Shown one piece after another: positions 18,824 to 63,734 of a DNA stretch of 64,000 nt. The stretch covers positions 455,050 to 519,049 of the forward strand of contig JBEKML010000001.1 in the NCBI GenBank assembly GCA_050008535.1, written 5' to 3'. How positions within the stretch are numbered: position 1 is the stretch's first letter; the number at the start of each line of letters is the position of its first letter. Made by a program: the position numbers and the translations under genes. This DNA comes from Minisyncoccia bacterium (GTDB lineage Bacteria; Patescibacteriota; Minisyncoccia; UBA6257; 2-01-FULL-56-20). Below the pieces are notes generated by a model. It worked only from the letters and a program-made list of their open reading frames with translations. It was not told where the DNA came from and ran no database searches.

Positions 18824-18923
18824 AATTCCGTCGCTCGCCCATCACGAAAATAAATTTTCGCGTGGGCTCGCTAGGAATTATAAAAAGTGCCACGGAGCGT
18901 AACATTGTTTTTGCGGCGAGGGC

Positions 18924-18953
18924 TTGACAAAAACCGAGGAACTGAGCTATTGT
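18924..18953 (+). promoter_or_regulatory. Promoter TTGACA-18-TATTGT
   Basis: Consensus -35 and a reasonable -10. RBS GGAGGGAGG before ATG 18974. Confidence 0.4.
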
Positions 18954-18973
18954 ATGGGGAGGGAGGCACTCAC

Positions 18974-19759
18974 ATGAGAGCCATTAACAAGTTAAGGGCC
19001 GCGGTGCTTGCCGCGGTCGGTGCAGTTCTTCTCGTAACGGTTGCTACCGCGCACGCGCAGACGCTCACGGACCCCAAGACGGGTCTCCCGTGGTGCCACC
19101 AACCGGGCTATCTGCCGGTGCCATGGGGTCCCACGGTCGGCATGATTACCAGCCTTTCGAACCCCAATAACGGGGACCAGGCGGTGATTGAGCCTGGCGC
19201 GTGGGTGTTTGTCCGCGGCTTGCAGTTCAATTTCTTGCCGTCGCAGGTAGCGACGGCGGACGCGGGCAGCGGTCCTCTGCCAACCGTCCTCGGGGGGACG
19301 ACGATCCTTATCGACGGCTGTCCGGCGCGGATAGCTTTTATGGGCTTGGACTTCGGGAAGATGCCCTTCCCGTCCACGGCCCTGATCCAGGTCGGCCAAA
19401 CGGCTGGTAGGGACACAGCGGAGGTCAAATTGCAGATGACCTTGCCGGATGGCACGGCGTGTGTCACACCTTCGCGTTTCCAGCCGGCGACGGCGGCGAC
19501 ATCAGCGCCAACGCCCACGGCCAGCAATGCTACGCCTACGGCGCCACGGATGCGGGTGCCTCGGCTCATCAACCGAGGGGGTGGATTTTACACCCTTTAC
19601 GGCGTGGGCAACGAGGCCTCCATCGTGGAGGCTGACGGCGCGGTCGTCCAAGTGACTTTCGCGGACGAGCGCGAGATCACCTTTCAGACCTCGGACGGCG
19701 ATGGCGTTTCACGCCTCTCCGTCAACGGGAAGATGGTGGCACCGGCGGCCCAGAAGTAA
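18974..19759 (+). CDS. Hypothetical secreted protein
   Basis: Start MRAINKLRAAVLAAVGAVLLVTVATAHA|Q (signal peptide). Pro/Thr-rich linker. Confidence 0.55.
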   Translation: MRAINKLRAAVLAAVGAVLLVTVATAHAQTLTDPKTGLPWCHQPGYLPVPWGPTVGMITSLSNPNNGDQAVIEPGAWVFVRGLQFNFLPSQVATADAGSGPLPTVLGGTTILIDGCPARIAFMGLDFGKMPFPSTALIQVGQTAGRDTAEVKLQMTLPDGTACVTPSRFQPATAATSAPTPTASNATPTAPRMRVPRLINRGGGFYTLYGVGNEASIVEADGAVVQVTFADEREITFQTSDGDGVSRLSVNGKMVAPAAQK

Positions 19760-19866: not shown

Positions 19867-21591
19867 TCAATAACAGCCCTGCGTCGATTGGTACCAATAA
19901 TTGCATGAATAACATTCCGTGACTACCTGGCCCATTGTCGCAGTATTCCAGATACCCCCGCACTGGCCACAACTGGGCGCCCCCGTTTGGCAACCGGGAG
20001 GCGCATAGTCCGTGCGCCATCCTCCGACCCGCGTTTGGCAAGCTCCGGGACAAGTATTATTGCAGGCAGAATCAGCAGCGGGCCCGCAGGAGCCAGTACC
20101 AGTATACTGTTGGAATTGGATGCTATCGCAGTTGTAATCATAACTACCGTCTCCTCTGTCGGTTGTATACCATTGACTTGCTCCTCCTGGATGCGCACTT
20201 GAGTTGTAATCGTAGCAATCAGTGTTATTGCTGACATACCCCGAAGGGAGAGAATAGCCCGAGCAGACCTGCTGGGCCGAACCGGCACCATAACCGTCGC
20301 CGTCGTTATCAACGTAGCCACTCAGGTTCTGCCACTTACCCCCATCGCTGTCGTTGCAATCCCATCCCAGCGCCTGGCTTGCATCAAGGTAAGCGTAGCC
20401 ACTGCTCCCGTCGTCATAATAAGTTCTTCCATTAAGCGAACCCGATGCACCGAGGCACGCACTTCCATTCCAAGAGCCGACCGCCCCATAGCCGTCGTGG
20501 TCGGCATCCGTAACCACGGTTTCGCTCGTGTACACATAATAATTATTGTCATTGCAATCAACGTTGCTGCGATACCCGTCGCCGTCATTATCCGGGAAAT
20601 TAGGCGTCACGGCATTGCTTGCCGCGGAAGCAGCACCGTTGCCGTTGGCGTTCGTCGCATAGACCTTGAAGGTATACGAGGTGCCGTTCGTAAGGCCGGA
20701 GACGGTGCAGGGGCTTGAAGCGCAGGTCCCGGTGATGTTGCCCGGCGTGGAGCTCGCGGTGTAGCCCGTGATCGGGGAACCGCCGTTCGAAGCGGGAGCC
20801 GTGAAAGCAACGGATGCGTTGCCGTTGCCGGCCGACGCCGTGCCAATCGTCGGCGCTCCGGGAACGGTGGAAGGCGTCACGGCATTGCTTGCTGCGGACA
20901 AAGGACCATTGCCGATGGCGTTCGTCGCATAGACCTTGAAGGTATACGAGGTGCCGTTCGTAAGGCCGGAGACAGTGCAAGGGCTTGAAGCGCAGGTCCC
21001 GGTGATGTTGCCCGGCGTGGAGCTCGCGGTGTAGCCCGTGATCGGGGAACCGCCGTCTGAAGCGGGAGCCGTGAAAGCAACGGATGCGCTGCCGTTTCCC
21101 TTTGTTGCCGTGCCGATCGTGGGTGCGCCGGGAATGGTCGCGCATGTATTAGTAAGGGAATAGGCACCGTCGTTGCAGTCCACGACCGTACGGGACAGCA
21201 TCAAATTCAATCTCCTGTAGCCTGCCCCGGGAGAAGTTGAGGACGCCACCACTGTGGTAGTCGACGGCCAGCCATCCCCGTCGGCATCAAGTATCCACAA
21301 GTAGGACTTTACCAATTTGCCGGTACCCACGAGGACAAGAGAGCCCGTCCCGTTGAGAACGAACGATGAACCAATGTCGAAAACAATGGTTTGGCCGGAA
21401 TTGATGGTCAAGGTTTGCCCGGTGGCTATCGTAATACCCCCATCAACTCCATCAACCGTACCGGGAAACGTACAACTCGCCGAAACGTTGGCCGTGCCGG
21501 AAACGGCACTGGGACAATTGGTGGCATGGGTTTTCGGCGCAAAACCGATCAAGCAGACGGCCGCAATGAGAACAAGAAGGATTTTTTTCAT
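19867..21591 (-). CDS. Secreted surface protein with two tandem fibronectin-type-III-like domains and a C-terminal Cys- and Asp-rich (calcium-binding-like DxDGDG) region
   Basis: Signal peptide MKKILLVLIAAVCLIGFAPKTHA. A ~90-aa unit repeated twice (...SPCTVSGLTNGTSYTFKVYATNA...). DADGDGWP, DNDGDGY and DADHDGYG motifs. Many Cys at the C-terminus. Confidence 0.7.
   Translation of the reverse strand: MKKILLVLIAAVCLIGFAPKTHATNCPSAVSGTANVSASCTFPGTVDGVDGGITIATGQTLTINSGQTIVFDIGSSFVLNGTGSLVLVGTGKLVKSYLWILDADGDGWPSTTTVVASSTSPGAGYRRLNLMLSRTVVDCNDGAYSLTNTCATIPGAPTIGTATKGNGSASVAFTAPASDGGSPITGYTASSTPGNITGTCASSPCTVSGLTNGTSYTFKVYATNAIGNGPLSAASNAVTPSTVPGAPTIGTASAGNGNASVAFTAPASNGGSPITGYTASSTPGNITGTCASSPCTVSGLTNGTSYTFKVYATNANGNGAASAASNAVTPNFPDNDGDGYRSNVDCNDNNYYVYTSETVVTDADHDGYGAVGSWNGSACLGASGSLNGRTYYDDGSSGYAYLDASQALGWDCNDSDGGKWQNLSGYVDNDGDGYGAGSAQQVCSGYSLPSGYVSNNTDCYDYNSSAHPGGASQWYTTDRGDGSYDYNCDSIQFQQYTGTGSCGPAADSACNNTCPGACQTRVGGWRTDYAPPGCQTGAPSCGQCGGIWNTATMGQVVTECYSCNYWYQSTQGCY
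20590..21130. repeat. Two near-identical 270-bp tandem copies (intragenic, encoding the duplicated FN3-like domain)
   Basis: Lines 20641-20700 and 20911-20970 are almost identical. Antisense ORFs 20607..20846 and 20877..21167 translate to near-identical peptides. Confidence 0.8.
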
Positions 21592-22040
21592 TTGAGCGTT
21601 ATCTGTACCGAAGACGAATCCGCCCGATCCGCTGCATATATGATTATATCATATACGCTCTTATAAGTATCTGAGGCTGCCCAGGAACCCTTCCATAATC
21701 CCTGCGTAGCACTGCCTTCCGTCAGCGCGAGCGGATACGTGGTGCTTCCATTGTCCATGACCATCGTAACCAGCACAGAAGTAACGGGGACATTGTCCGA
21801 GACCTTGACGCTCATGGTCTGCGTGCCCCCCGATGCCGGATAAAAGGGGATCAAATATCCTTCCTGTAATTGCGGGCCAGTTAAGGTGTGGCTACTTATG
21901 GAAAATCTGTTATCGTCCCTCGGAAAAACCGTCGTGAGCGGCGGGAGTGGCTTATTGAATACGCCATGGAGCGCGAAAAATATCGAAAGCGTCACAACAA
22001 GGACCATCCCGACCGCCGCATAGAGATATTTTCTATTCAT
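21588..22040 (-). CDS. Hypothetical membrane-anchored or secreted protein
   Basis: N-terminal hydrophobic segment YLYAAVGMVLVVTLSIFFALHG. Overlaps the downstream gene by 4 nt (operon). Confidence 0.5.
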   Translation of the reverse strand: MNRKYLYAAVGMVLVVTLSIFFALHGVFNKPLPPLTTVFPRDDNRFSISSHTLTGPQLQEGYLIPFYPASGGTQTMSVKVSDNVPVTSVLVTMVMDNGSTTYPLALTEGSATQGLWKGSWAASDTYKSVYDIIIYAADRADSSSVQITLK

Positions 22041-22085
22041 GCCGATTATGAAACGGGCGACCTACGGTGTCGCCTAGAAAAAACA

Positions 22086-22649
22086 TTATTTCGTGATGAT
22101 CCGAACTTTCGGCAATTTGCTCTGGAGCGCCCTTAAAGTGCTTGACGGTATAGGGTTTCCGGTCAACCCCAAAACCTTCAAACTTTTAAGGTTCACGATG
22201 CTCGGCGGGAGAGCGGTCAGTTGATCGTTGAAGAGCGAAAGCATCCACAGATTCGGCAGATTCCCAATCTCATCCGGCAAGCTCGTGAGCGGGTTGTTGC
22301 CCAGGTAAAGAACCTGGAGATTCTTCAAATTGCCAATCTCCGGGGGTAGATCGGTCAAGCTATTGTTTGCCAAATTGAGTAGGGTCAAATTCGACATTTC
22401 TAAAACGCTCGTTGGTAGCGCGGTCAATTTTTGTCCGCTCAGGTTCAAACGGAATACGCTTATGGGATTCGCGGCCGCCTGCGCGGTGCTCGTCACCTCA
22501 ATGCCCCTGTCCATGAGCGGCGCGGGTTGCGTTGCTGCGGCATTATTGCCCGACGCAGGATTATTCGGATGTCGTGCCACGTAATATATCGATCCAGCCG
22601 CGATAAGAATAATGGCAACCGCAACTATCCAGAAAAAGACCTTATTCAT
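22086..22649 (-). CDS. Leucine-rich-repeat (LRR) protein with N-terminal TM anchor
   Basis: Repeated LxxLxLxxNxL units (LTLLNLANNSLTDLPPEIGNLKNLQVLYLGNNPLTSLPDEIGNLPNLWMLSL...). Confidence 0.75.
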   Translation of the reverse strand: MNKVFFWIVAVAIILIAAGSIYYVARHPNNPASGNNAAATQPAPLMDRGIEVTSTAQAAANPISVFRLNLSGQKLTALPTSVLEMSNLTLLNLANNSLTDLPPEIGNLKNLQVLYLGNNPLTSLPDEIGNLPNLWMLSLFNDQLTALPPSIVNLKSLKVLGLTGNPIPSSTLRALQSKLPKVRIITK

Positions 22650-23688
22650 TTACGATGATCCCTGCCGGAGCATCGCTTGAACCGATATTGCTCCATTGGT
22701 TCGCGTCAAAGCGAGGCGCGGTCAGACGGTAGCTTACTTCAAGGGACGCCGCGGATGCGGAAGGTTTGGCGAAAAGCGTAACGGTTCCTTTCGCTGCATT
22801 TTTCACGTACCACACGTCGCCGTCAAAACTCGGCGTGAGTATTACCACAAGCCCGTTCAGATTATTTTTCAGGATCTGCGTTGTTTCTTTAAAGAGCCAC
22901 AGATCGCTTCCCTTTTCCGCTCCCGCAAGATCAAGCGTGTAGGAGTATGTTTGGTCCGTAGAGAAACTCGTTCCCGGAAAATCGGCGACGCCCGTTGTTT
23001 CTCCCTTCACGCCGGTCATTTCCACGCCGTAGGTAGCGAATTTATCGCCGTTGATCGTATAGACTGGGTCAACGGTACCAACGGTGATTTTTCCCGCGCC
23101 GCCGCCGATGACAACGGTATCCGCTCCTGCTGTGCCGAAGCGCGCCGTCGTCCCACCGCCGCTCACTACATCAAGCTTATATCCTGGCCCCGTCACCCCG
23201 ATGCCGACATTGCCACTAGCACCTAGAATATTCAATGCATTTAAAACATTTCCACCCCCATCTGGCACTTGAAATCTCAGAGTTTTTGCTCCCCAGCTCC
23301 CCGCCTCTCCCCCTACCCCAATGCCACCAATCCAACCTTGGTATCCGCTAGAAGTGTCATAAGCATAGAAACCCACCAACTCCGCCAACGTCGCAGCTTG
23401 AGTGTTCCCGATACCAACAGCGGGATTACCAAGCCCACCAGAAGTAAAGGTCATCGACGCGCCAGCCACCGATAATTTTTGTCCCGGCGTTGTCATCCCG
23501 ATGCCGACATTGCCGTTGCTTAGGACACTGACGGCTCCCGAACAATTCGGGGGCGTGCAGCCGTTCGGGGGGCCGTTAAAAGCACTGACATGCGTGGTCG
23601 TGGTGGTGGTAAGCACGTAGGCCGCAAAAGATAACACAAGAACCAGGGCAACGAGAACTATGATGCGCTTGGTATCCTTGATATCCAT
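22642..23688 (-). CDS. Membrane-anchored surface protein with Gly-rich tail-fibre-like repeats (NGNVGIG.T.PG.KL.V)
   Basis: TM anchor IIVLVALVLVLSFAAYVL. Repeats SNGNVGIGMTTPGQKLSVAG and ASGNVGIGVTGPGYKLDVVSGG. Gly/Thr-rich beta-like C-terminus. Confidence 0.55.
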   Translation of the reverse strand: MDIKDTKRIIVLVALVLVLSFAAYVLTTTTTTHVSAFNGPPNGCTPPNCSGAVSVLSNGNVGIGMTTPGQKLSVAGASMTFTSGGLGNPAVGIGNTQAATLAELVGFYAYDTSSGYQGWIGGIGVGGEAGSWGAKTLRFQVPDGGGNVLNALNILGASGNVGIGVTGPGYKLDVVSGGGTTARFGTAGADTVVIGGGAGKITVGTVDPVYTINGDKFATYGVEMTGVKGETTGVADFPGTSFSTDQTYSYTLDLAGAEKGSDLWLFKETTQILKNNLNGLVVILTPSFDGDVWYVKNAAKGTVTLFAKPSASAASLEVSYRLTAPRFDANQWSNIGSSDAPAGIIVNE

Positions 23689-23758
23689 TAGCTTAAGTCT
23701 ATCAAATTATGGGGCAGGGGGGGCTGTGGATAGCTCGGTTGTTATATACTAAAGGCAA

Positions 23759-25141
23759 ATGCCCAAGGGACAAACACTTGTGGAGGTTCTCATTGCTGTC
23801 GCGTTGGGAGTCGTTTTGTTTACTGGGGCTGCAAACCTGATCATCCCAGCCATAAAAACAAACACTACGACAAATAGTGTCGTAACTGCGACAGCGCTAC
23901 AAAAGGAGCTTTTGGACAATGTCTCGGCATGGGCGGGAGGAAACTGGAATGGTATTCTTGCGCTCGCAACAACCTCCGCACATACCTATTACCTTGTAAC
24001 CACGCAATCGCCCTTTGTGGCCACAAGCGGCGCGGAATCCGTCACGGTGAATACAACCACGTTCGCCCGATATTTTTATGTGGACGATGTCATCCGCAAT
24101 TCAAGCGGTTACATCGCGACGAGCAGCGGCACCTACGATCCATCCACGAAAAAAGTTACGGTCGTCTGCAGTCGACCGCAAGGTACTCCCTTGACCGTTT
24201 CCGCCTACCTGACGCGGAACTACGAAAATGCTTATGATCAGACTGATTGGTCGGGGGGCGGAGGGTTGAACGGGCCGATCACTACGGTGGGGAACCAGTT
24301 TTCCACCTCTTCGAATATTAGCTTCACGAGCATTCCAGGGTCGCTTCTTCTGATTACGACAGGAGGAAGCGGCGCAATAAACTCGAGCAGTTATACTCAT
24401 TGGGCATGGAACGATCTCATTGGGTGGATTGACTTTTGGAACAACGGGAGCGGCACAACTGTCACCGGGCAGGGCCTCACGGGTTACGCGAGTTCCTCGG
24501 TGGGGCAGATCTCTCTCGATTGCCACACAACCAGCATCGGCAACATATGCTCCACAAGCACTTATCAGGTGGCGAACGACGGCTCCGGCCATCTTTCCGG
24601 CTGGGCCTGGAACGACAGCCTTGGCTGGATCGGCTTTAATAGTAGTTCCCCCGCCTACCAAGTTACCATTGATGCGAGCGGAGATTTTCAGGGCTATGCA
24701 TGGAACGATTTCGCAGGGTGGATCAGTTTCAACTGCGATAATACCACAAGCAGCGGCTGCGCAAGCTCCACCTATAAGACGCAAACGTTCTGGACTCCTT
24801 CGTCCACCATAACTGGCTACTTGGATTCCGCCACCTTTGACACCAACTCGGTGTCGGCGCAGCTCATTTCGGTCCTCTGGCAGGGCACCCAACCAACAAG
24901 CACAACGGTGAAGTTCCAATTCGCGGTGAGCAGTGTTTCAAGCGGCCCATGGACCACCTTTCTTGGCACGGATGGGACTTCGAACACCTATTATATTCCG
25001 CTCGGTCCCGGTGTCCCGCTTGCGCTTTCTTCCGCCTACACCAGCAACTTCCGCTATTTCCGCTACCGCATTTTCATCGTTGGCCCGAATAATGCCTCAA
25101 GCGCGCAGGTGGACAATATCGCTATAAGCTGGAACCCTTAG
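23759..25141 (+). CDS. Type IV pilin-like protein (class III signal peptide, G|QTLVE) with a large C-terminal domain carrying three W-rich repeats (GWAWND.LGWI.F)
   Basis: MPKGQTLVEVLIAVALGVVLF prepilin motif with Glu at +5. Repeats HWAWNDLIGWIDFW, GWAWNDSLGWIGFN and GYAWNDFAGWISFN. Confidence 0.65.
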   Translation: MPKGQTLVEVLIAVALGVVLFTGAANLIIPAIKTNTTTNSVVTATALQKELLDNVSAWAGGNWNGILALATTSAHTYYLVTTQSPFVATSGAESVTVNTTTFARYFYVDDVIRNSSGYIATSSGTYDPSTKKVTVVCSRPQGTPLTVSAYLTRNYENAYDQTDWSGGGGLNGPITTVGNQFSTSSNISFTSIPGSLLLITTGGSGAINSSSYTHWAWNDLIGWIDFWNNGSGTTVTGQGLTGYASSSVGQISLDCHTTSIGNICSTSTYQVANDGSGHLSGWAWNDSLGWIGFNSSSPAYQVTIDASGDFQGYAWNDFAGWISFNCDNTTSSGCASSTYKTQTFWTPSSTITGYLDSATFDTNSVSAQLISVLWQGTQPTSTTVKFQFAVSSVSSGPWTTFLGTDGTSNTYYIPLGPGVPLALSSAYTSNFRYFRYRIFIVGPNNASSAQVDNIAISWNP

Positions 25142-35691: not shown

Positions 35692-36549
35692 CTACTGCGC
35701 GGCGTCGGTGAACACCACCAATCTTTGGCTGTAGCTTAATCGAGCTGGATTCCAGATGCCTTCACAGGTGATAAGGTTAAGATGAATGCCGCCGTCGCGG
35801 GACGTAAAAACATCGGCGGCATCCGCTGCCGGATCATAACTGCGGCTCTCGCGGACCACGAAAGCGATGGATTCTCCTTTGTCGTTCAGGACATACAGTT
35901 TGTCCCCCGCGCTCAGTTCATTCAAATTGCCGAACACGCCGGGTTTCGTCAGTATCCCTCCGCGTATCTGAGCGATATGCCCGGTAACGACGGCAACGCC
36001 CTTTTCTCCAGGGCGCGCACTGCCCGTAAACCAGCCTACGTCAACGATATTGCTCGGTATTTCTATTACCCCATCGGGTGTGAGGCCGTTATATTGAAAA
36101 CCCGCGTCAATGTTGAGCTTCGGGATCTTGAGACGCACCGGGGATCCATCTGCGTTCTTCGCAATCGCTACGCTCGTCGTTCCGGCCACTGCAGTTGTTG
36201 TTGCGACCGTACTCTGCGCCCCGGTCGCATCAATTGCTGCTTGCTGGACGGTCGCGTTAATTTTCCCCCTTGAAACAGGGCCGAAAAAACCGGCGGAAGG
36301 ATAGACACCCGCCGATGCCTGCCATGCGCGAAGAGCGGTTCTGGTAAGCGGACCAAAGTAACCGGTGGGGGCGGGAATTCCCAGAAAACCGCCGGCAATT
36401 AAAAATTGCTGCAGGGCGGATACTTCGTCCCCGCGGGTTCCGAGCGTAAGATCATGGGTGAAGGTAAAACCTTCTCCGTTCGCGCTATTCCCGGCCATAG
36501 CAACACAGAGCAATAGCGCAACGAACCATATTTTATTTAATACCTTCAT
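35692..36549 (-). CDS. Sortase-family transpeptidase with N-terminal peptidoglycan-binding (PG_binding_1) domain
   Basis: Start MKVLNKIW plus signal/TM segment. PG-binding repeat GDEVSALQQFL...GYFGPLTRTALRAWQ. Catalytic TLITCEG-like (NLITCEG) Cys motif and a His upstream (VVTGH). The long ORF 35692..37317 is partly antisense to the next gene. Confidence 0.7.
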   Translation of the reverse strand: MKVLNKIWFVALLLCVAMAGNSANGEGFTFTHDLTLGTRGDEVSALQQFLIAGGFLGIPAPTGYFGPLTRTALRAWQASAGVYPSAGFFGPVSRGKINATVQQAAIDATGAQSTVATTTAVAGTTSVAIAKNADGSPVRLKIPKLNIDAGFQYNGLTPDGVIEIPSNIVDVGWFTGSARPGEKGVAVVTGHIAQIRGGILTKPGVFGNLNELSAGDKLYVLNDKGESIAFVVRESRSYDPAADAADVFTSRDGGIHLNLITCEGIWNPARLSYSQRLVVFTDAAQ

Positions 36550-36561
36550 CGCACTATCATT

Positions 36562-37221
36562 ATGCCATACATCCCCATGAAACCCGTCCTCCTCTCTCTC
36601 GCGCTTGCCTGCGAAATAATTATTATTTTTATCCTCGCCACGAACCTCACCGTTCGGGGTATCGCGGCGCCATATATTTATGAGAACGCCAAAGACGCTT
36701 CGGAAACGCAGGCAGCGGTCATCCCCGGAGCGGCGCTCTTGCCGGACGGCACGCTGTCCCCGATATTCAAAGACCGCGTGGATGCGGCCATCGCATTGTA
36801 CGAGGATAAGAAAGTTTCTAAAATTCTTGTGTCGGGCGACAACAGCACGGTGAGCCATAACGAAGTGAATCCGGTCCGCAATTACCTTTTGCTCAAAGGC
36901 ATTCCCGACCAGGATATTTTTCTCGATCACGCGGGTTTCAATACTTACAGCACGATGTACCGCGCCCGGGATATTTTCGGCGTTACTTCCATGCTGATCA
37001 CCACTCAATCGTTCCATTTGCCCCGCGCGGTGTTCATTGCCCGCGAGCTCGGGATAAACGCTTACGGGGTGAACGCGGACAACGGCCCCTCCCTTTTCCG
37101 GAACTATTTCCGCGAAGCGTTCGCTGACGAGAAAGCAGTGTTCGATCTGGTGTTCCATGCAAAACCGAAGTATCTGGGGGACCGGATCCCCATAACGGGC
37201 GATGGGAGGTATAATCCTTAA
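36562..37221 (+). CDS. SanA/YdcF-family (DUF218) membrane-anchored protein
   Basis: N-terminal TM segment. VSGDNSTVSHNEVNPVRNYL and ITTQSFHLPRAVFIAR resemble the DUF218/SanA pattern. Confidence 0.6.
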   Translation: MPYIPMKPVLLSLALACEIIIIFILATNLTVRGIAAPYIYENAKDASETQAAVIPGAALLPDGTLSPIFKDRVDAAIALYEDKKVSKILVSGDNSTVSHNEVNPVRNYLLLKGIPDQDIFLDHAGFNTYSTMYRARDIFGVTSMLITTQSFHLPRAVFIARELGINAYGVNADNGPSLFRNYFREAFADEKAVFDLVFHAKPKYLGDRIPITGDGRYNP

Positions 37222-37223
37222 AT

Positions 37224-38612
37224 ATGAATCATCTTGAGCGTTATGCGGTAGTGATCTTGTTGTTCGCGCTTGCAGTCTTGCCCGCCGCGGCGGGGGCGCA
37301 AACGACCAGTACGACATTCAGGACGGCGTCCTCTTCGCACAACCGGTTCTATTGGGATGGTTCAAGCGTGCCGACCAGCACCCTTCAGCAACAAATACGA
37401 GGATATCGGCAGCAATCGGGCGATCTGCAGCAAAAAATTTCCGCATTGGGCAGTACGGCCGCTGCCTCGGTTTCGATGCCCGTTCTTTTTGGCGTCGGGA
37501 TCAAAGACATCTCGCCGAACTTTGGCGACCCGCGCTCCGGCGGCCGAACGCACGAGGGCGAGGATATTATGGCGGTTAAGGGGACCCCGATCGTTTCTCC
37601 GACCCCTGCAGTCGTCTTGCATATCGAAACGGGCGTGGACGAAGGGAACGCGGTCTATACCGCGAATCCGGGCGGCGAAACATTCGTCTATATGCATCTT
37701 GACCGTTTCGGCGAGGGCGTAGCGTCGGGGGTCGTCTTGGGACAGGGCTCGCTTATCGGCTATGTGGGGAATACCGGCAACGCCTCAAGCGGACCCGCGC
37801 ACCTTCACTTTGAGATACACAATAGTTCCGGCGTTCCGGTGGATCCGTTTCCGCGCCTGACGGGAGAGTTCACCATCCAGGAAAAGATAACGGACCTCGC
37901 GACGATCCTTATGCAGACTTCCGACAGCACCGCTCTCGCGCGGTTTCTTGTGACGAACTTCCGTGGGACGTTCATTGCCGCTCTCGCCGCCAATATCACC
38001 CTGCCCGCGCCCGTGATCGACGCTCTTGCGTCCATTCCGGCAGTTCCTGCGCCGGTAAGCGCGGGCGGCGGCCCCCTCCCTGCCGGCGATCTTGATATCG
38101 GTTCGTCCGGCGCGGCGGTTGTTGCGCTTCAGGAATATCTGATACAAGCGGCTTCGGGCGCCGCGGCGACGCGCCTTGCGGGCGCCGGCGCAACCGGTAA
38201 TTTCGGGATGATCACGAAAGCGGCTCTTGTGGAATACCAGGTGGCGGTGGGCATTTCTCCGCCCGGCGGATACTATGGGCCCGTAACACGGGCATTCGTT
38301 ACTGCTCATCCCCTTGGGACGGCGCAGCCGCCCGCGGTTTCAAGCAGTTCCACTGTTGGCGGTAGTGGCGTGGCACTTTCGCGCGACCTCTACCGTGGCG
38401 TGAGCGGCGAGGACGTGCGCACGCTCCAAAGACTTTTGAATGCTAATGGATTTACGGTCGCGGAAACGGGCTCTGGCTCTCCGGGAAACGAGACAACCTA
38501 TTTCGGTCCGGCGACGGAGGCCGCGGTCATTAGATTCCAGATCGCGCGCGGCATCACGCCCTCCGTGGGCTACGTCGGACCGCTTACCCGCGCAGCGCTC
38601 GCGGCTCTCTAA
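37224..38612 (+). CDS. M23-family metallopeptidase with two C-terminal peptidoglycan-binding domains
   Basis: HEGEDI, GNTGNASSGPAHLHFEI (HxH) M23 motifs. Two PG_binding_1 repeats (AVVALQEYL...GYYGPVTRAF and VRTLQRLLNANGF...GYVGPLTRAAL). Confidence 0.8.
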   Translation: MNHLERYAVVILLFALAVLPAAAGAQTTSTTFRTASSSHNRFYWDGSSVPTSTLQQQIRGYRQQSGDLQQKISALGSTAAASVSMPVLFGVGIKDISPNFGDPRSGGRTHEGEDIMAVKGTPIVSPTPAVVLHIETGVDEGNAVYTANPGGETFVYMHLDRFGEGVASGVVLGQGSLIGYVGNTGNASSGPAHLHFEIHNSSGVPVDPFPRLTGEFTIQEKITDLATILMQTSDSTALARFLVTNFRGTFIAALAANITLPAPVIDALASIPAVPAPVSAGGGPLPAGDLDIGSSGAAVVALQEYLIQAASGAAATRLAGAGATGNFGMITKAALVEYQVAVGISPPGGYYGPVTRAFVTAHPLGTAQPPAVSSSSTVGGSGVALSRDLYRGVSGEDVRTLQRLLNANGFTVAETGSGSPGNETTYFGPATEAAVIRFQIARGITPSVGYVGPLTRAALAAL

Positions 38613-49025: not shown

Positions 49026-51797
49026 ATGAAAAAACTAACCATGGCGATGGTGGCTTGCCTCATCGCGGTTTCTGTTTTGCCGGTCGTGTCGAATGCAGCG
49101 ACGAACGCCGATCTGCAAGCGCAGATCCAGGCGCTTCTCGCGCAAATCCAACAGCTGCAGGCGCAACTGACGGCGCAGGGAGGGACAGGTACGTCGTGGT
49201 GCCATACATTTAACACCAATCTGGGCGTGGGCAGCTCGGGGGACGAGGTGACCGCGCTTCAGACGGCTTTAACGAAAGAAGGAGTCGGTGCCGAGAAAAA
49301 TTGGACGAGCGGCACCTTTGACGAAGTTACCGCTTCGGCAGTAACAGGATTCCAGGAAAAATATCGGAGTGATATTCTCACTCCCGCCGGCCTCGTGAAC
49401 GGCACAGGTTACGTCGGCGCGCGCACCCGCGCGAAACTGAACGCGCTGTACGGGTGCGGCGTAGTCACTCCGCCTCCGGTTGTCTGCCCTACGGTCGCAA
49501 AACTTTGCCCTGACGGCACCTATGTCAGCCCTGTTCCGCCAACCTGCCAATTTCCGGCTTGCCCGGTTTCAACTACAACTTCAACCCCGCCTTACCCCTC
49601 TCAACAGCTTACGATGATTTCGCCTGCCGGAGGAGAGCGTTGGCAAATAGGATCGCAACAGACCATAAGTTGGACGGATTCGGGTCTGAGAGACGGAGAC
49701 ACATACACCTTGTTTCTTACAAATGCGAATGGGGGTGCGTATGGAATTATAGGAAATGCGATTGTTCACCCGATTTACGGCAATCCTAATAGTGGATGGG
49801 TCGTGGGACGTCTTACAAACAACGCAACAGTGCCTCCGGGAGATTACTATATTCAGGTGGTAAAACAATATCAGAGTGCGGGAGGCGTCTATATTCAAAG
49901 CAAGGCGTTCACGATTGTGGCGGCAACCGCCACCCAGCATGGGTCCCTGAATGTTTCGGCGGATCCGATCCAACCTTCGAGCGGCCAGGTGGTGATGGGC
50001 TCAACCGGCGTCGCGCTTGCGGCATTCCGTCTTACTGAAACATCCAATGTTGAATCGCTTAAAGTGACCGATCTTACCGTGACGGATTATACGGCGTCGA
50101 ACAACACCGCTGCCTTTAGTAATCTTACGCTCTCGAGCGGGGGAACGGTGCTGGGCACGGCGGGCGCGCCGACGCGCCTTGCGAACGGCAGCTACGCCTA
50201 TCAGTTCCATTTTCCGACGCCTGTCGTTATCCCACAAAGCAACTCGGTTTCATTTGTGCTAAGAGGAGATGTGGTGCCATGGATTGCTCTTAATCCAAAC
50301 GACAACGGCGTGCATCAATTCGAGATCATCAATTCCTCGGACGTGACAGCGCTCGGAACCGCTTCGAACATTGCGGCCAACGTGAACATCTCAAATGCGA
50401 ACGGCAATGGCGTCGCCGTCTTGCGTAGCACATTGAGTCTGGTCGTCTCTCCTTCCGGAGCAACGTCGAATCGCACGCCTGTGAGCGCCGACGCGCTTGG
50501 CACGATTATGTTAACCGCCAACCCGGCCGGTCCTGTTGCGCTTGGCCGCTTGACCATTACCTTCCAGGGTTCGGGATTATCATCGAACGCCAATGGGTTT
50601 TTGCAGAGCGTCCAGCTGATTGACCAGAACGGAGGAAATATTGGGGTTCCTGTTGGATTCTCGGTCAATGGGACGGCGGCCACGTGGGACCTCAGTAATT
50701 ATCAAATCCCTGCCGGTGTACAATATTATTTCCAGTTGCGGGCAAACAGTACCTTGCTTCAGGGTTCTGCGCCGATCACCTTGTCCGCCGCGATCAAGAG
50801 CCCCGTTGACCTGACCTATGCTGATGCTTTGGATCCGTATGCGACGCGAGGCCTGACGATCCCAGCCGGTTTCCCATTCGTCATCAACTCGGTGAGCTAT
50901 TTGGGCGGGACCCCGCAGGCTATGGGAGTGAGTCCCGCATCGTTGAGTTTTACCGCCTCGTCCAATGCCATCAACAATCCTTCTCCTGCGAGTTCTCAAT
51001 TAATGCTTACCAATTATCCCAACACCGGCGTTACCGTTACAAAGACCTACACCAGCCCCTTGCCGTCCGGAGCCGATTGGCTTTCGATTGGTGCTTTGAC
51101 CGGTTCGGGCACGACCAAGACGATCACCGTTACACCGCAGCCATGGAACGCGCCAGCCGGTCTTAGCCCTGGCACCTACACGGCGTCTATCGCGATCAGC
51201 GCGAATGGCCAGACCATCACGGTGCCGGTGACGCTGACGGTGACGTCGTCGCCGGTTCAGCCGGTTCTCTCGGTCAGTCCGGCGTCGTTAAGCTTTACCG
51301 TCCAGCAGGGCGCGACTTCCGTGCCGTCGCAGTCATTGTCGGTTTCCCTTTCCTCTGGTGCGAGCGATATAAAAACCAGTGTCAGTTACGGATCGGGGAA
51401 TGGCTGGCTAACTGCGAGTGCGACAACGGGAGTTTCCGCCGGTGTCCCGGGGAACGTTGTAGTCACGGTAAATCCAACCGGCTTATCGGCAGGAAATTAT
51501 GCTGCGACAATTTCCGTGAGCGCGTTTGGTGTCGCAATTTCAGTCCCCGTAACGCTTACCGTATCGGCGCAACCAAAGCCAAGCGTAACCCTGAATGGCG
51601 TCCAGGGTTACAACCCGACGACAGGGGCATACACGAATAACACCGCCCTTGCGAGCACCTACCTCGTCCTCTATGGCACTTTTGGTTCCTCGCTGCTCAA
51701 CGCGGTTCCTACCAGAGCGCCACCCAAATCAACGTGTCCCTCGCGGGCATTGCGACAGGCTCCCACACGGTCGCGGTCTCGACCCCCTATGGTATGA
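49026..51797 (+). CDS. Large secreted surface protein (signal peptide, coiled-coil, PG_binding_1 domain, Ig/Big-like beta domains). The reading frame breaks inside a C-terminal tandem repeat.
   Basis: Signal peptide MKKLTMAMVACLIAVSVLPVVSNA. PG-binding GDEVTALQTAL...TASAVTGFQEKY. Repeats at the C-terminus. The last ~30 aa look frame-shifted compared with the second repeat copy. Confidence 0.65.
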   Translation: MKKLTMAMVACLIAVSVLPVVSNAATNADLQAQIQALLAQIQQLQAQLTAQGGTGTSWCHTFNTNLGVGSSGDEVTALQTALTKEGVGAEKNWTSGTFDEVTASAVTGFQEKYRSDILTPAGLVNGTGYVGARTRAKLNALYGCGVVTPPPVVCPTVAKLCPDGTYVSPVPPTCQFPACPVSTTTSTPPYPSQQLTMISPAGGERWQIGSQQTISWTDSGLRDGDTYTLFLTNANGGAYGIIGNAIVHPIYGNPNSGWVVGRLTNNATVPPGDYYIQVVKQYQSAGGVYIQSKAFTIVAATATQHGSLNVSADPIQPSSGQVVMGSTGVALAAFRLTETSNVESLKVTDLTVTDYTASNNTAAFSNLTLSSGGTVLGTAGAPTRLANGSYAYQFHFPTPVVIPQSNSVSFVLRGDVVPWIALNPNDNGVHQFEIINSSDVTALGTASNIAANVNISNANGNGVAVLRSTLSLVVSPSGATSNRTPVSADALGTIMLTANPAGPVALGRLTITFQGSGLSSNANGFLQSVQLIDQNGGNIGVPVGFSVNGTAATWDLSNYQIPAGVQYYFQLRANSTLLQGSAPITLSAAIKSPVDLTYADALDPYATRGLTIPAGFPFVINSVSYLGGTPQAMGVSPASLSFTASSNAINNPSPASSQLMLTNYPNTGVTVTKTYTSPLPSGADWLSIGALTGSGTTKTITVTPQPWNAPAGLSPGTYTASIAISANGQTITVPVTLTVTSSPVQPVLSVSPASLSFTVQQGATSVPSQSLSVSLSSGASDIKTSVSYGSGNGWLTASATTGVSAGVPGNVVVTVNPTGLSAGNYAATISVSAFGVAISVPVTLTVSAQPKPSVTLNGVQGYNPTTGAYTNNTALASTYLVLYGTFGSSLLNAVPTRAPPKSTCPSRALRQAPTRSRSRPPMV

Positions 51798-60209: not shown

Positions 60210-63200
60210 ATGATGTCGGTATTTTTTAGGATCATGCCCCAGACATTACGTAATAAGTTGATCTTCCCAGCGCTGCTGCTCCTGGGGTTTTTAGGAATTG
60301 CCTTGCCGTTTGTCTCCCATGCCGCGATCTACAACGCGACCAATCTTTTGGGGCAAGTGGATGTGAACAGCAACCCCATTTGGACCAAAAAGACAGCGAA
60401 CAACAGCCCCACCGCCCCCAACGCGCTCGGATTTAACTCCCCGCACAACGTGGCCGTGGATACCACGAATAGCCGCCTCTTTGTGTCCGACGACGGGAAC
60501 AACCGCATACTCGTGTTTCCTCTTGACGCGAACGGCAATCTCGTCTCAAGCACGCCCTCGTACGTTCTCGGTCAGGCAGACTTCGTCTCGAAGGCACTAG
60601 ACGCTACGCCGAGCGGGCTCTTTTCCCCTGAAAGCATCGCCTATGATTCAGCCAATGACCGCCTTTTTGTGGTCGACCGATTCCACAGCCGGGTGATGGT
60701 CTTTAATGTCGCGACATCGACCATTACAAACGGCGAGAACGCCCTCTTTGAACTTGGCCAGACAAACTTCACCTCAAGCACCGGGGCCACCGCCCAGAAC
60801 GGACTCAAGAATCCTGTCGGCGTGGCCTACGATTCAGTAAATTCCCGCCTTTTCATCAGCGACGCAGGCAACAACCGCGTGATGGCCTTCTCTGTCCCTG
60901 CGAACGCCACGAGCGGCGTGAACGGCGAGAATGCCCTCTTCGAACTCGGGCAGACGAACTTCGCTTCAAGCACCGCGACTACCACCGCGAGCGGCCTTAA
61001 TAGTCCTAACGGCACCGCCTATGACCCGACGAACAACCGCCTTTTTGTAGCCGACAAAACAAACAACCGCGTGATGTCCTTCACCGTCCCTGCCAATGCC
61101 ACGAGCGGCATCAATGGCGAGAACGCCGACTTTGTGCTTGGCCAGACGAACTTCACCTCAAGCACCGGGACCAGCACCCAGAGCGGACTCCACGGACCCG
61201 CAGGCATCTTCTATGACTCGGCGAACAACCGCCTTTTTGTTCCTGATTCTGTTACCAATGCCCGGGTTGTGTCCTTCACCGTCCCTGCCAATGCCACGAG
61301 CGGCATCAATGGCGAGAACGCCGACTTTGTGCTCGGCCAGATGAACTTCACCTCAAGCACAGCCTCTACCACCCAGAACAGACTTAATGGTCCCTCTGGC
61401 ACCGCCTATGACTCAACGAACAACCGCCTTTTTGTAGCCGACGCAGGCAACAACCGCGTGATGGCCTTCGCCGTCCCTGCGAACGCCACGAGTGGTGTGA
61501 ACGGCGAGAACGCCTCATTCGCCATCGGCCACTATGACCTATCCGGCGCGCTCGCGACGGCCTCCTTTGTGAATGGTATCGTGGACGACGGGTTTCTCGT
61601 CAATGCCCAAGGGTTCGACAGTTTGAGTAATACCGTTCTTGATACGATCAACCATCGTCTCTTTGTTTCAGATTCGTATTTAGATAATTTCCGTATTCTT
61701 GTTTTCCCCCTGGACAGCGCCAACAATATCACGACTACCACCGCCCAGTATGTCCTCGGCGCCTGCAATTTCACAACCGCCGGGAGCGGCGCCGTCACAT
61801 CGAGTACTTTTCAACAGTCCAATCTCGCTTACGACAGCGTAAATTCCCGCCTCTTTGTTTCGGATGGACACGATAACCGCGTCCTCGCCTTCAACGTAGC
61901 GACCTCTACCATCGCGAACTGCGAAGGAGCGACGTTCGTGCTCGGGCAGGCGGATTTCGTTTCAAATGGCTCTGCTGTCGCCCAGAACAAATTTCACGGG
62001 TCCGACGACGTTGATTACGATTCCGTAAATTCCCGCCTTTTCGTGGCCGACGAAACAAACAACCGCGTGATGGCTTTCAGCATCCCCGCGAATGCCACGA
62101 GCGGCATCAATGGCGAGAACGCCCTTTTTGAACTCGGTCAGACAAACTTCGTCACAAGCACCGCGGCCACCACCCAAAGCGGGCTCCATGCTCCTACCGG
62201 CGTGGCCTACGATTCGGTGAACGCCCGCCTTTTCGTTGATGACTCTGGCAACAGTCGCGTGATGATCTTTGCTGTCCCTTCGAATGCCACGAGTGGCGTG
62301 AACGGCGAGAACGCCCTCTTTGAGCTCGGCCAGACGAATTTCACCTCAAGCACCGCGGCCACCACACAGAGCGGGCTCAACAATACCGACGATGACACCT
62401 ATGATACAACGGGCAATCGGCTCTTTGTCGCTGACCACGACAACAATCGCGTGACGATCTTCACTGTCCCTGCGAACGCTACGAGCGGTTTCAATGGGGC
62501 GAACGCACAGAACAACATAGGCCAGGCTGCCTGGACCACCAATGCTTCCGGCACCAGCCAGAACGCGTTTATCGCGCCCGAGTCCTCCCACGCCTACGAC
62601 CCGGTCAACAACCGACTGTATATCTATGAGGCTAGTGGCTACCGTGTCCTCCAATTCAACTTCATCCACATCACGACCGCCTCGTTCCCCTCAAGCACGG
62701 TGGGCTTCGCATATTCCCAAACTATCGCTGTCACCTCCACCCAGGGAACCTCCCAGACCTACAGCATCGCCTCCGGCACATTACCCGCAGGATTGTCGTT
62801 GAACTCCGCAACAGGCCTCATCTCGGGCATACCCACGGTTGCTACGACGACCACCGTTACCATAGAAGCCGACGACAATTTTGATACCGGCCCCTTCTTT
62901 GACCTAGCGACGTATACCATGGGGAGCGTAAACGGGACGTCCTCTGCGCCCCAATCCCTCACGGCCTCATCAAGCGACACCCAGGTCTTCCTCGCCTGGA
63001 GCATTCCCGCCACGAACGGTGGCTCTGCCATCACCGATTACCTTCTTGAATACAAAGAAACGGCGAATCCTCTCTGGCGCAGTTTTGTCCATGCTGCCAC
63101 CACCTCCCTCTCTATTATCGTTACGGGCCTCACGAACAACACACCGTACGATTTCCGCGTTTCCGCCGTGAACAGCATTGGCACCTCTTCTCCTTCTTCC

Positions 63201-63734
63201 CTGGTCTCCGCCACGCCAGTTTTCCCCGCTCCCAATGCGACCGTCGGCGTCGGCGCGAGCTACGCGGCGCCGCCCGGCGGCGGTGGTTTGCCCACGCTCC
63301 TCGCAACCGCCCCCCTTGCGACCACCACCGTTTCCACCTCTTCTCTCCTTGCCCAGCTCCTCTCCCTCTATCAAACCCTGCGTGCACTGCAGCAACAGCT
63401 TGGCCTTCCCCTCACGCCCATCCCTGCCTATCTCATGAATCTGTCCACCAGCACCACCACTGCCCAAGCCATTTCCTCGTCCACCACCCCCTATCTCTTC
63501 TCCCGCAATCTCTCCCTCTGGAGCCGTGGCTCCGACGTCCAGGCCCTCCAGGAGTTCCTGATCCAACAAAACGCCGGCCCTGCCGCCGCACAGCTCAAAA
63601 CCCACGGCGCGACGACCGTCTTTGGCCCCCTCACCTACAACGCTCTCAGAGAATTCCAGAAGCACGCAGGCATCACCCCTGCGGCAGGGTACTTTGGCCC
63701 CAAGACCAGGGCGTATGTGAAGACGCGGTTGTAA
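60210..63734 (+). CDS. Giant secreted NHL-repeat (six-bladed beta-propeller type) protein with about 7 tandem 64-aa repeats, an FN3 domain and a C-terminal peptidoglycan-binding domain
   Basis: Signal peptide. Repeated NNRLFV(A/S)D and NNRVMAF NHL motifs. FN3 (LLEYKETANP...TPYDFRVSAVNSIG). C-terminal PG_binding_1 (DVQALQEFL...GYFGPKTRAYV). Confidence 0.75.
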   Translation: MMSVFFRIMPQTLRNKLIFPALLLLGFLGIALPFVSHAAIYNATNLLGQVDVNSNPIWTKKTANNSPTAPNALGFNSPHNVAVDTTNSRLFVSDDGNNRILVFPLDANGNLVSSTPSYVLGQADFVSKALDATPSGLFSPESIAYDSANDRLFVVDRFHSRVMVFNVATSTITNGENALFELGQTNFTSSTGATAQNGLKNPVGVAYDSVNSRLFISDAGNNRVMAFSVPANATSGVNGENALFELGQTNFASSTATTTASGLNSPNGTAYDPTNNRLFVADKTNNRVMSFTVPANATSGINGENADFVLGQTNFTSSTGTSTQSGLHGPAGIFYDSANNRLFVPDSVTNARVVSFTVPANATSGINGENADFVLGQMNFTSSTASTTQNRLNGPSGTAYDSTNNRLFVADAGNNRVMAFAVPANATSGVNGENASFAIGHYDLSGALATASFVNGIVDDGFLVNAQGFDSLSNTVLDTINHRLFVSDSYLDNFRILVFPLDSANNITTTTAQYVLGACNFTTAGSGAVTSSTFQQSNLAYDSVNSRLFVSDGHDNRVLAFNVATSTIANCEGATFVLGQADFVSNGSAVAQNKFHGSDDVDYDSVNSRLFVADETNNRVMAFSIPANATSGINGENALFELGQTNFVTSTAATTQSGLHAPTGVAYDSVNARLFVDDSGNSRVMIFAVPSNATSGVNGENALFELGQTNFTSSTAATTQSGLNNTDDDTYDTTGNRLFVADHDNNRVTIFTVPANATSGFNGANAQNNIGQAAWTTNASGTSQNAFIAPESSHAYDPVNNRLYIYEASGYRVLQFNFIHITTASFPSSTVGFAYSQTIAVTSTQGTSQTYSIASGTLPAGLSLNSATGLISGIPTVATTTTVTIEADDNFDTGPFFDLATYTMGSVNGTSSAPQSLTASSSDTQVFLAWSIPATNGGSAITDYLLEYKETANPLWRSFVHAATTSLSIIVTGLTNNTPYDFRVSAVNSIGTSSPSSLVSATPVFPAPNATVGVGASYAAPPGGGGLPTLLATAPLATTTVSTSSLLAQLLSLYQTLRALQQQLGLPLTPIPAYLMNLSTSTTTAQAISSSTTPYLFSRNLSLWSRGSDVQALQEFLIQQNAGPAAAQLKTHGATTVFGPLTYNALREFQKHAGITPAAGYFGPKTRAYVKTRL
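60640..62480. repeat. Intragenic tandem repeats, period about 192 bp, 7 or more copies with high identity
   Basis: Antisense ORFs at 60827, 61019, 61211 and 62207 translate to near-identical peptides spaced 192 nt apart. Repeated strings tcaccgtccctgccaatgccacgagcggcatcaatggcgagaacgcc. Confidence 0.8.

Follow-up and report, generated by a model that had tools for sequence, protein, structure and literature searches.

We analysed 64,000 nucleotides of the genome of a Minisyncoccia bacterium (GenBank assembly GCA_050008535.1, contig JBEKML010000001.1, positions 455,050-519,049 of the forward strand). This whole stretch is referred to below as "the window", and all coordinates are window positions. 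The subject is an island of five open reading frames (ORFs) for predicted surface proteins, in which four genes on the minus strand (D, C, B and A, in their order of transcription) diverge from a single gene on the plus strand (E). The genes and the two intergenic regions discussed below are as follows.

19867-21591, minus strand: gene A, predicted secreted protein of 574 aa with two fibronectin type III (FN3) domains and a Cys-rich C-terminus
21588-22040, minus strand: gene B, predicted signal-anchored protein of 150 aa with an Ig-like domain
22041-22085, minus strand: spacer of 45 nt between C and B, with a hairpin (GGCGAC-N7-GTCGCC)
22086-22649, minus strand: gene C, predicted signal-anchored leucine-rich-repeat (LRR) protein of 187 aa
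22642-23688, minus strand: gene D, predicted secreted fibre protein of 348 aa, related to mosaic adhesive trimer (MAT) and phage tail fibres
23689-23758, no strand: divergent intergenic region of 70 nt between D and E
23759-25141, plus strand: gene E, predicted modular type IV minor pilin of 460 aa, divergent from D

An original prediction, made from the sequence alone, described the four minus-strand genes as overlapping by 4-8 nt. This is true of D and C, which overlap by 8 nt, and of B and A, which overlap by 4 nt (ATGA), but C and B are 45 nt apart; on identical contigs gene callers place the start of B 33 nt further in. The hairpin in the C/B spacer has a stem of 6 bp (GGCGAC-ACCGTAG-GTCGCC) without a T-tract, and might act in RNA processing or stability between two coupled gene pairs. 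The D/E intergenic region contains an AAAGG 5 nt before the start codon of E; a scan for promoters and terminators found no sigma-70-like site there, with counts near shuffle expectation. Hydropathy analysis showed one hydrophobic segment in each of the five proteins, always at the N-terminus. No product looks cytoplasmic, which agrees with the earlier view that the minus-strand products carry a signal peptide or a transmembrane anchor.

The AlphaFold2 model of E (mean predicted local distance difference test score, pLDDT, 88.9) divides into three domains.

23759-24358, plus strand: pilin module of E, aa 1-200, with the leader MPKG, the site G↓QTLVE with Glu at +5, a hydrophobic tract, an alpha1 helix and a beta-sheet
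24377-24799, plus strand: Trp-hairpin domain of E, aa 207-347, two units of ~65 aa, each with two G[WY]A..G.I.[FL] hairpins and one Cys pair
24800-25138, plus strand: C-terminal beta-sandwich of E, aa 348-460, jelly-roll or galactose-binding-domain-like, pLDDT mostly above 90

Sequence and model together identify E as a probable modular type IV minor pilin. Its short leader ends in Gly and is followed by Glu at +5 (MPKG↓QTLVE), as in class III signal peptides, and Pfam N_methyl (PF07963, IPR012902) scores marginally above its cut-off (21.8 bits against 21.2). The signal is conserved as (K/R)G↓Q(S/T)L(I/V)E in an alignment of 55 homologues, about 38 of them full-length. Hydrophobic windows span aa 3-33, and in the model a 55-residue alpha1 helix (aa 7-61) leads into strands at aa 77-161, with pLDDT of about 90 over helix and strands; this is the pilin arrangement of a hydrophobic alpha1 helix followed by a beta-sheet. 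The C-terminal part of the pilin module is thus predicted to be the beta-sheet that completes the pilin fold, and the region of Trp repeats to be a separate beta domain. The three-domain model, together with the occurrence of the last two domains as a free secreted protein elsewhere, places E among modular pilins as defined by Raynaud et al. (2021). E is the sole prepilin-type gene in the 64-kb window. The possibility that its prepilin motif is spurious, which the original prediction had raised against itself, is answered by conservation of the motif in homologues, by the pilin fold of the model and by the pilC/pilM-like neighbourhood of the family.

Three Trp repeats had been predicted in E, and all three were found: the motif [HG][WY]AWND..GWI.F occurs at aa 214, 281 and 312. 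A fourth hairpin, which is degenerate, lies at aa 242. The four hairpins result from an internal duplication of a unit of ~65 aa; the self-alignment scores 108, where shuffled sequences average 35 (z = 10.8). Residues W217, W223, C255, C264, W290, W315 and W321 are invariant in the homologue alignment. No Pfam family matches aa 200-347 at E <= 10, and the curated models of aromatic repeats (CW_binding_1, GW modules) are unmatched there; the profile of E finds nothing among PDB sequences at E <= 1, and a literature search for the Trp and NVGIG motif strings (GWISF, GWIDF, NIGWI, NVGIG) returned nothing relevant.

The C-terminal beta-sandwich of E also has no Pfam match at E <= 10. In Foldseek searches it alone of the domains of E gave partial and weak matches (about 112-126 aligned columns where the match is a single domain, prob 0.5-0.96) to carbohydrate-binding modules, the factor VIII C2 domain, an Eph ligand-binding domain, PirA and the sugar-binding domain of Fbs1. 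The jelly-roll and Trp-hairpin domains would bind a ligand, probably a glycan. Searches of PDB and BFVD with the whole model of E ranked P22 gp10-like tail hub proteins of podoviruses first by E-value (1e-7 to 1e-4, prob up to 1.0). We did not accept homology to these proteins, with TM scores below 0.2 and root-mean-square deviations above 30 Å; the match stems either from beta-rich domains that are alike locally in 3Di terms or from a distant relationship.

Homologues of E are numerous (609) and come exclusively from Patescibacteria, and at least 441 relatives turned up when one genome per GTDB species was scanned. Gene neighbourhoods were counted by tblastn in these species-representative genomes for the best 80 of the at least 441 loci. 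PilC is encoded beside 58 of the 80, a PilM-like protein beside 57-59, PilB beside 54, a minor pilin of ~160 aa beside 54 and the major pilin beside 51. The gene order, pilA-pilB-pilC-minor pilin-E-small pilin-like gene-pilM-like gene, is constant, and in 58 of the 80 genomes the relative of E is placed between pilC and a pilM-like gene. The E family is therefore, in our view, a regular component of the Parcubacterial pilus operon, from which the window copy is detached. The closest relatives of the window copy (L001/L016 and L004) are likewise detached from the pilus operon.

The architecture of the family varies. Adjacent genes for a pilin module of ~200 aa and for a signal-peptide protein of ~290 aa, comprising the Trp domain and the jelly-roll, replace the single gene in 50 of the 80 loci; in 13 the two parts are fused, as they are in the window. 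This pattern of fusion and splitting predicts that the binding module rides on the adjacent minor pilin. Some relatives of E have gained a LamG lectin domain. The homologues of D and E that carry lineage labels come from Patescibacteria metagenomes and metagenome-assembled genomes (MAGs) assigned to Harrison-, Wolfe-, Lipton- and Colwellbacteria and to Paceibacterota. Many GTDB-representative MAGs with E relatives (L017, L019, L023 and others, from binchicken assemblies) are titled "uncultured Candidatus Saccharibacteria". That title is probably generic and unfit for taxonomy, the other lineage-named relatives being Parcubacteria/Paceibacteria.

The protein encoded by D, which the original prediction had described as Gly-rich and tail-fibre-like with NVGIG repeats, has two parts.

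23197-23511, minus strand: fibre region of D, with the capping-loop motifs GNVGIGMTTPGQKLSV (aa 58-73) and GNVGIGVTGPGYKLDV (aa 158-173)
22645-23091, minus strand: C-terminal tip domain of D, aa 200-348, a conserved beta-sandwich

NVGIG occurs at aa 60 and 160, and the relationship to tail fibres could be made specific. MATs are trimeric fibres on the surface of the predator Bdellovibrio bacteriovorus, with capping loops and interchangeable tips, and one of them was shown to bind glycans of the prey surface (Caulton et al., PMC10769870). A profile built from D homologues, searched against PDB with hmmsearch, matched Bd2133 (8OND, 3.3e-9), Bd3182 (8OJN, 1.5e-6), Bd1334 (8OML) and Bd2439 (8OL4), in a range extending to 5e-4. 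The same fibres, 8OND and 8ONC, were the top Foldseek matches of the D model. The alignment passes through the GNVGIG...P...L loops, and the loops of D align to the GNVGIGATAPTAKLEV-type loops of Bd2133. D therefore combines the capping-loop motif (of the VG-x-G/N-x-x-x-P-x-x-x-L type; the MAT consensus is described in PMC10769870) with similarity to solved fibres.

The tip of D is modelled with pLDDT above 90 at aa ~230-330. It is common to most of the 120 Patescibacteria relatives listed, and a metagenome scan found 436 relatives of D. Pfam pAdhesive_6 matches the tip weakly (E = 0.004) and was the sole result at E <= 10 for the unassigned parts of A, B, D and E. D has no Peptidase_S74 domain, and its confident C-terminal beta-sandwich is of the non-S74 (NS74) type; Peptidase_S74 does end some of its relatives (P0211, P0239). 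The N-terminus bears a signal-peptidase site (VSA↓F) of a type conserved among homologues, and about 25 mature residues precede the first loop. We also considered a non-canonical prepilin signal at this N-terminus and ruled it out: in D and its close relatives the sites are of the AxA type recognised by signal peptidase I (VSA↓F, VFA↓S, VHA↓Y), with no Gly-1 or Glu+5. On this basis D is predicted to be a short, secreted, MAT- or tail-fibre-like fibre, presumably trimeric.

For the remaining three genes, a Pfam run on the proteins bore out the earlier assignments of LRRs to C and of two FN3 domains to A. In C, behind a hydrophobic segment at aa 1-27, LRR_8 (1.8e-14, 53.7 bits) and LRR_4 (2.3e-13, 50.3 bits) are well above their common cut-off of 27. 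An LRR gene is present in only 3 of 80 D-family loci, and C is a lineage-specific addition. B has no Pfam match, even at E <= 10, and its close homologues are unlabelled metagenome proteins. A first search, which returned 7 clusters, had suggested that B belongs to a tiny family; an exhaustive profile search overturned this, finding 911 representatives at E < 1e-3, mostly small anchored proteins. Longer members of the B family carry Ig-like domains of the Big_7, Kre9_KNH or Big_3_2 families.

A consists of a signal peptide (THA↓T), an N-terminal beta-rich domain, two FN3 domains, four Asp motifs and a Cys-rich C-terminus, with 25 Cys in all. Pfam fn3 matches two stretches (6e-23, 81.3 bits, cut-off 25), and matches in PDB are to FN3 domains only (titin, fibronectin). 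The original prediction had read DxDGDG repeats in this protein as calcium-binding. The motif is indeed present four times, as D.D[GH]DG[YW] at aa 102, 334, 362 and 428, followed each time by DC[NY]D, but calcium binding is not backed by a match to any Pfam family. The D.DGDG...DC.D pattern presumably resembles the thrombospondin type 3 or MopE-type motif; aa 1-150 and 330-574 match no Pfam family even at E <= 10, and the thrombospondin type 3/MopE-type repeat models are unmatched. Homologues of A range from 537 to 2204 aa. One further feature belongs here.

20602-21138, minus strand: tandem duplication encoding the FN3 domains of A, 270 nt x 2, with 91% matches and a Tandem Repeats Finder score of 906

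Two contigs of the same strain, both 100% identical (L014, L015), end inside this repeat at window position 21027. The repeat breaks short-read assemblies, and consequently the copy number of FN3 domains in A may be unreliable in public assemblies.

The arrangement of the minus-strand genes is not due to chance, since the order D-C-B-A recurs in at least four metagenome locus groups beyond the strain of the window (L005/L007/L008, L006, L009/L010 and L011/L012), at identities of 45-82%. In these syntenic loci the D tip is 77-82% identical, C 55-64% and A 45-53%. Neighbourhoods of the D family were counted in 80 metagenome loci, of which only 34 are 8 kb or longer. An A/B-type gene follows D in 41 of them, a gene for a membrane-anchored cupredoxin-like protein is present in 19, a pilin-like gene in 18 and a gene for a membrane protein of ~155 aa (p155) in 17. 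The usual neighbours upstream of D in relatives are these last three, the pilin-like protein being of ~266 aa (pilin266). Pilin266, the cupredoxin-like protein (~185 aa) and the ~155-aa membrane protein (which has the motif YFGKLSWFP) form a recurrent trio with the E and D families, sometimes inside a type IV pilus operon; we observed it in L001/L016, L004, L006-L009, L021, L055, L062, L103, L121, L124, L128, L157 and L162/L163.

The gene set is part of the pilus operon in L021, which is the complete chromosome OY970358.1, and in L162/L163, where the genes run pilA-pilB-pilC-minor pilin-E (split)-pilin266-cupredoxin-like-p149-D-like fibre-B/A fusion-p138-pilM-like. The D-like fibre of these loci has 1168 aa and the same tip as D, and the protein that follows it (462 aa) combines a membrane anchor, the B domain, the N-terminal domain of A, a DADHDGY...DCND motif and a Cys-rich end. 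Fusion of B and A is common: the two form one ORF in 26 of 45 loci and are separate adjacent genes in 10. B therefore probably holds A at the cell surface, because the two are a single membrane-anchored protein in most relatives. In at least five proteins (P0135, P0138, P0141, P0173 and P0178) a class III signal peptide and a pilin266-family module precede NVGIG loops and a D tip, with identities of 27-53% to the pilin266 family and 45-52% to the tip of D; P0202 also starts with a class III signal peptide. Because fibre and tip are fused to a pilin in these relatives, D probably works on or beside the pilus. Architectures that join a pilin to S74 are already among the modular pilins in InterPro, many of which come from phyla of the candidate phyla radiation (CPR) (PMC8179133). 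Gene fusions thus predict three partnerships: pilin with the Trp/jelly-roll module, B with A, and pilin with D. A further reading concerns the two coupled pairs, each of which joins a protein with a cleavable signal (D, A) to one with a signal anchor (C, B). D/C and B/A might on that account be anchor-cargo pairs, an inference weaker than the predictions from fusions.

The cassette lies next to secA in the window and between dnaE and recG in relatives. Just downstream of the A homologue, before recG, there is an IS200/IS605-type Y1 transposase gene in L006 (11227-11913), L009 (12080-12772) and L011 (5400-6083). The transposase gene of the relatives and the different genomic context in the window suggest that the cassette was relocated.

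We think it probable, at roughly 60%, that the region is a detached piece of the accessory adhesion gene set that belongs to type IV pili in Parcubacteria/Paceibacteria. Type IV pili are widespread and enriched in CPR bacteria (PMC6744442); in Saccharibacteria they mediate host binding, and the large minor pilins of that group carry jelly-roll or propeller modules (PMC11623550). E would be inserted in a type IV pilus, most likely at the tip, with the machinery encoded elsewhere in the genome, and would present its two binding domains, Trp-hairpin and jelly-roll, on the pilus. D would trimerise into a fibre that binds a surface ligand with its tip, and C or a minor pilin would tether this fibre to the cell surface or the pilus. 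B, with its membrane anchor and Ig-like domain, would anchor A, which is spaced by FN3 domains and rich in potential disulfides. The likely use of the set would be attachment to a host cell or a substrate. The dedicated surface module proposed in the original prediction is well supported by the D-C-B-A synteny, by the B+A and pilin+D fusions and by the D-like and B/A-like genes inside the pilus operons of relatives, and its suggested role in attachment or host interaction is the one we favour.

A number of observations weigh against this interpretation. There is no pilB, pilC, pilM or pilD in the 64-kb window, so that the E copy is unlinked from pilus machinery, and the pilin266, cupredoxin-like and p155 genes of the relatives are also absent from it. 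The divergent adjacency of E and D was found elsewhere only in L004. E falls just below the cut-off of NCBIfam TIGR02532 (15.3 against 16.3), the fibre region of D is modelled poorly as a monomer (pLDDT ~50-60), and the predicted ligand-binding domains have no sequence-level match to a characterised lectin in searches of PDB and Pfam. Finally, the window is matched by three contigs, all from the same strain and 99.98-100% identical; they carry no information on the variability of the island among strains, which the original prediction proposed as a check.

A bolder form of the argument, which we offer tentatively and consider a long way from probable, is that the type IV pili of Parcubacteria bear trimeric receptor-binding fibres of the MAT type. 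A fibre might be attached by fusion to a pilin, as in P0141 and P0178, or, as in the window, D might be secreted and dock onto a minor pilin or a partner with an anchor; combined with E it would be a retractable and exchangeable host-recognition apparatus. If this were true, the set would be a cellular analogue of the receptor-binding proteins of phages, deciding which host an epibiont attaches to.

Among the alternatives, the one that survives best, unlikely as we consider it, is that E, and possibly the whole set, serves DNA uptake through a competence-type pilus or the priming of pilus assembly, and not adhesion; its extra domains would then have DNA or pilus partners as ligands and not host surfaces. 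Type IV pilus genes of CPR bacteria are found together with competence genes, and a part in DNA uptake has been suggested for them (PMC6744442), while large minor pilins at the tip, CofB and GspK, prime assembly (PMC8179133); the position of E among small minor pilins in relatives would fit a priming complex. However, the C-terminal domain of E resembles carbohydrate-binding and discoidin jelly-rolls, relatives of E add LamG lectin modules, and the fibres to which D is related include one with demonstrated binding of surface glycans. In the Pfam and PDB searches no domain resembles a known DNA-binding pilin module.

Slightly less credible is the view that these are unrelated envelope proteins brought together by chance, in which case the island would be no functional unit and would have no tie to pili. 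Small CPR genomes are rich in secreted proteins, and the window itself contains other envelope proteins (a sortase, an M23 peptidase and PG_binding proteins of 923 and 1174 aa). The rarity of the E/D adjacency and the difference in cassette context, secA in the window and dnaE-recG in relatives, could be read in the same way. Chance does not account for a D-C-B-A order and translational coupling that are conserved at 45-82% identity, nor for the frequent fusion of B to A, the existence of pilin+D fusions and the presence of D-like and B/A-like genes inside the type IV pilus operon in L021 and L162/L163.

It is improbable that the five proteins are structural parts of the envelope, such as an S-layer or wall scaffold, and take no part in binding to other cells. 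Envelope scaffolds do often contain FN3, Ig-like and Cys-rich modules, and the B family is large (911 representatives) and made up mostly of small anchored proteins. Yet no SLH, PG_binding or sortase signal is present in A-E, and homology to receptor-binding fibres and fusion to pilins point to binding that faces outward.

We rejected the idea that the minus-strand operon is a receptor-binding remnant of a prophage or tailocin, for which there is very little room: the tail-fibre-type capping loops of D, the S74 chaperone of its relatives, the IS200-type transposase that flanks the cassette in relatives and the PHROGs matches ("minor tail protein" for the FN3 domains of A at 7.7e-14, a weak "tail fiber" for D at 0.003 and phrog_6688 for the LRRs of C) are outweighed by flanks that contain no capsid, terminase, portal, baseplate or integrase gene, by Sec signals or membrane anchors in all four proteins, which virion proteins lack, by vertical conservation of the cassette beside pilin genes and inside type IV pilus operons, and by the generic, domain-level nature of the PHROGs matches, which involve FN3 and LRR domains.

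In the flanks of the island there are genes for SecA, a GARS-like ATP-grasp protein and a saccharopine dehydrogenase-like protein, and the rest of the window encodes housekeeping products (SecA, UvrABC, Mur ligases, a penicillin-binding protein, tRNAs) and further envelope proteins. The latter lie at 35692-38612, 49026-51797 and 60210-63734, and comprise a sortase with PG_binding_1, an M23 peptidase with PG_binding_1, a 923-aa Kre9_KNH/PG_binding protein and a 1174-aa NHL/He_PIG/FN3/PG_binding protein. An ORF of 290 aa at 18887-19759 on the plus strand is convergent with A. Its hydrophobic segment at aa 32-58 suggests that its true start is M29 (MRAINKL...), with an AHA↓Q cleavage site. It has a weak match to NCBIfam Soli_cterm (E = 7e-4), and its product is probably a sixth secreted protein adjoining the island.

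Knowledge of how ultrasmall Patescibacteria recognise and hold their hosts comes mainly from a few cultivated Saccharibacteria. Against this background the analysis defines the large and unnamed family to which E belongs as a standard member of Parcubacterial pilus operons. It also indicates that fibres related to those with which a bacterial predator recognises its prey occur in these epibionts as well, where they are genetically tied to pilins. The three "Rosetta stone" fusions predict binding partners and yield concrete candidates for host specificity.

Modular pilins and MAT or tail-fibre adhesins are kinds of protein that are already known. Three aspects appear to be undescribed in the literature that we searched: the Trp-hairpin/jelly-roll pilin family fixed in Parcubacterial pilus operons, the MAT-like fibres of Patescibacteria that are coupled and sometimes fused to pilins, and the conserved pairing of D with B/A. 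The nearest counterparts of E are the modular minor pilins PilB and PilC of S. sanguinis, CofB of enterotoxigenic E. coli and PilX1 of Saccharibacteria, which share with it a class III signal peptide, a small pilin module and grafted binding modules. The module of PilC is a lectin and that of PilX1 a jelly-roll, and all are thought to be adhesins exposed at the pilus tip (PMC8179133, PMC11623550). E differs from them in its two extra domains, which have no sequence match in Pfam or PDB, and none of them is among its top fold matches. At residue +1, E has Gln and not Phe. Also unlike them, the E family is encoded far more often by two genes than by a fusion, and its copy in the window stands apart from the pilus operon.

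In its prevalent split form, in which a secreted non-pilin binding protein is encoded beside minor pilins and presumably rides on them, the E family recalls the tip complexes of PilY1 and minor pilins in the type IVa pili of Pseudomonas and Myxococcus; PilY1 rides on PilVWX, as cited in PMC11623550. The E family is unlike PilY1 in having no sequence or fold similarity to its beta-propeller, and in being fused in 13 of the 63 loci where both parts are adjacent. C, with at least four LRRs behind a membrane anchor, resembles internalin-type surface LRR proteins, although its scores against the named families of InlA, Xop effectors and LIC_11051 are far below the cut-offs. A, with two FN3 domains, and B, with its Ig-like domain, resemble the FN3/Ig-like stalks of adhesins. 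C, A and B are unlike these adhesins in having no LPXTG or GW anchoring modules.

The closest relatives of D among known proteins are the non-S74 MATs of Bdellovibrio bacteriovorus (Bd2133, Bd1334 and Bd2439) and the phage tail fibres related to them. D shares capping loops and the repeat sequence of the beta-helix with the MATs, which are also its best fold matches. At 348 aa it is about a third of the length of the MATs (~1000 aa), it has only two loops, and its tip differs from every solved MAT tip. For MATs there is no report of a conserved operon like that of D, with its LRR, Ig-like and FN3 partners, or of relatives fused to pilins. Nevertheless, in both cases the fibre ends in a variable or independent beta-sandwich tip and is made by bacteria that live on other bacteria, and the authors of the Bdellovibrio study have themselves raised a possible interplay of MATs with type IV pili (PMC10769870).

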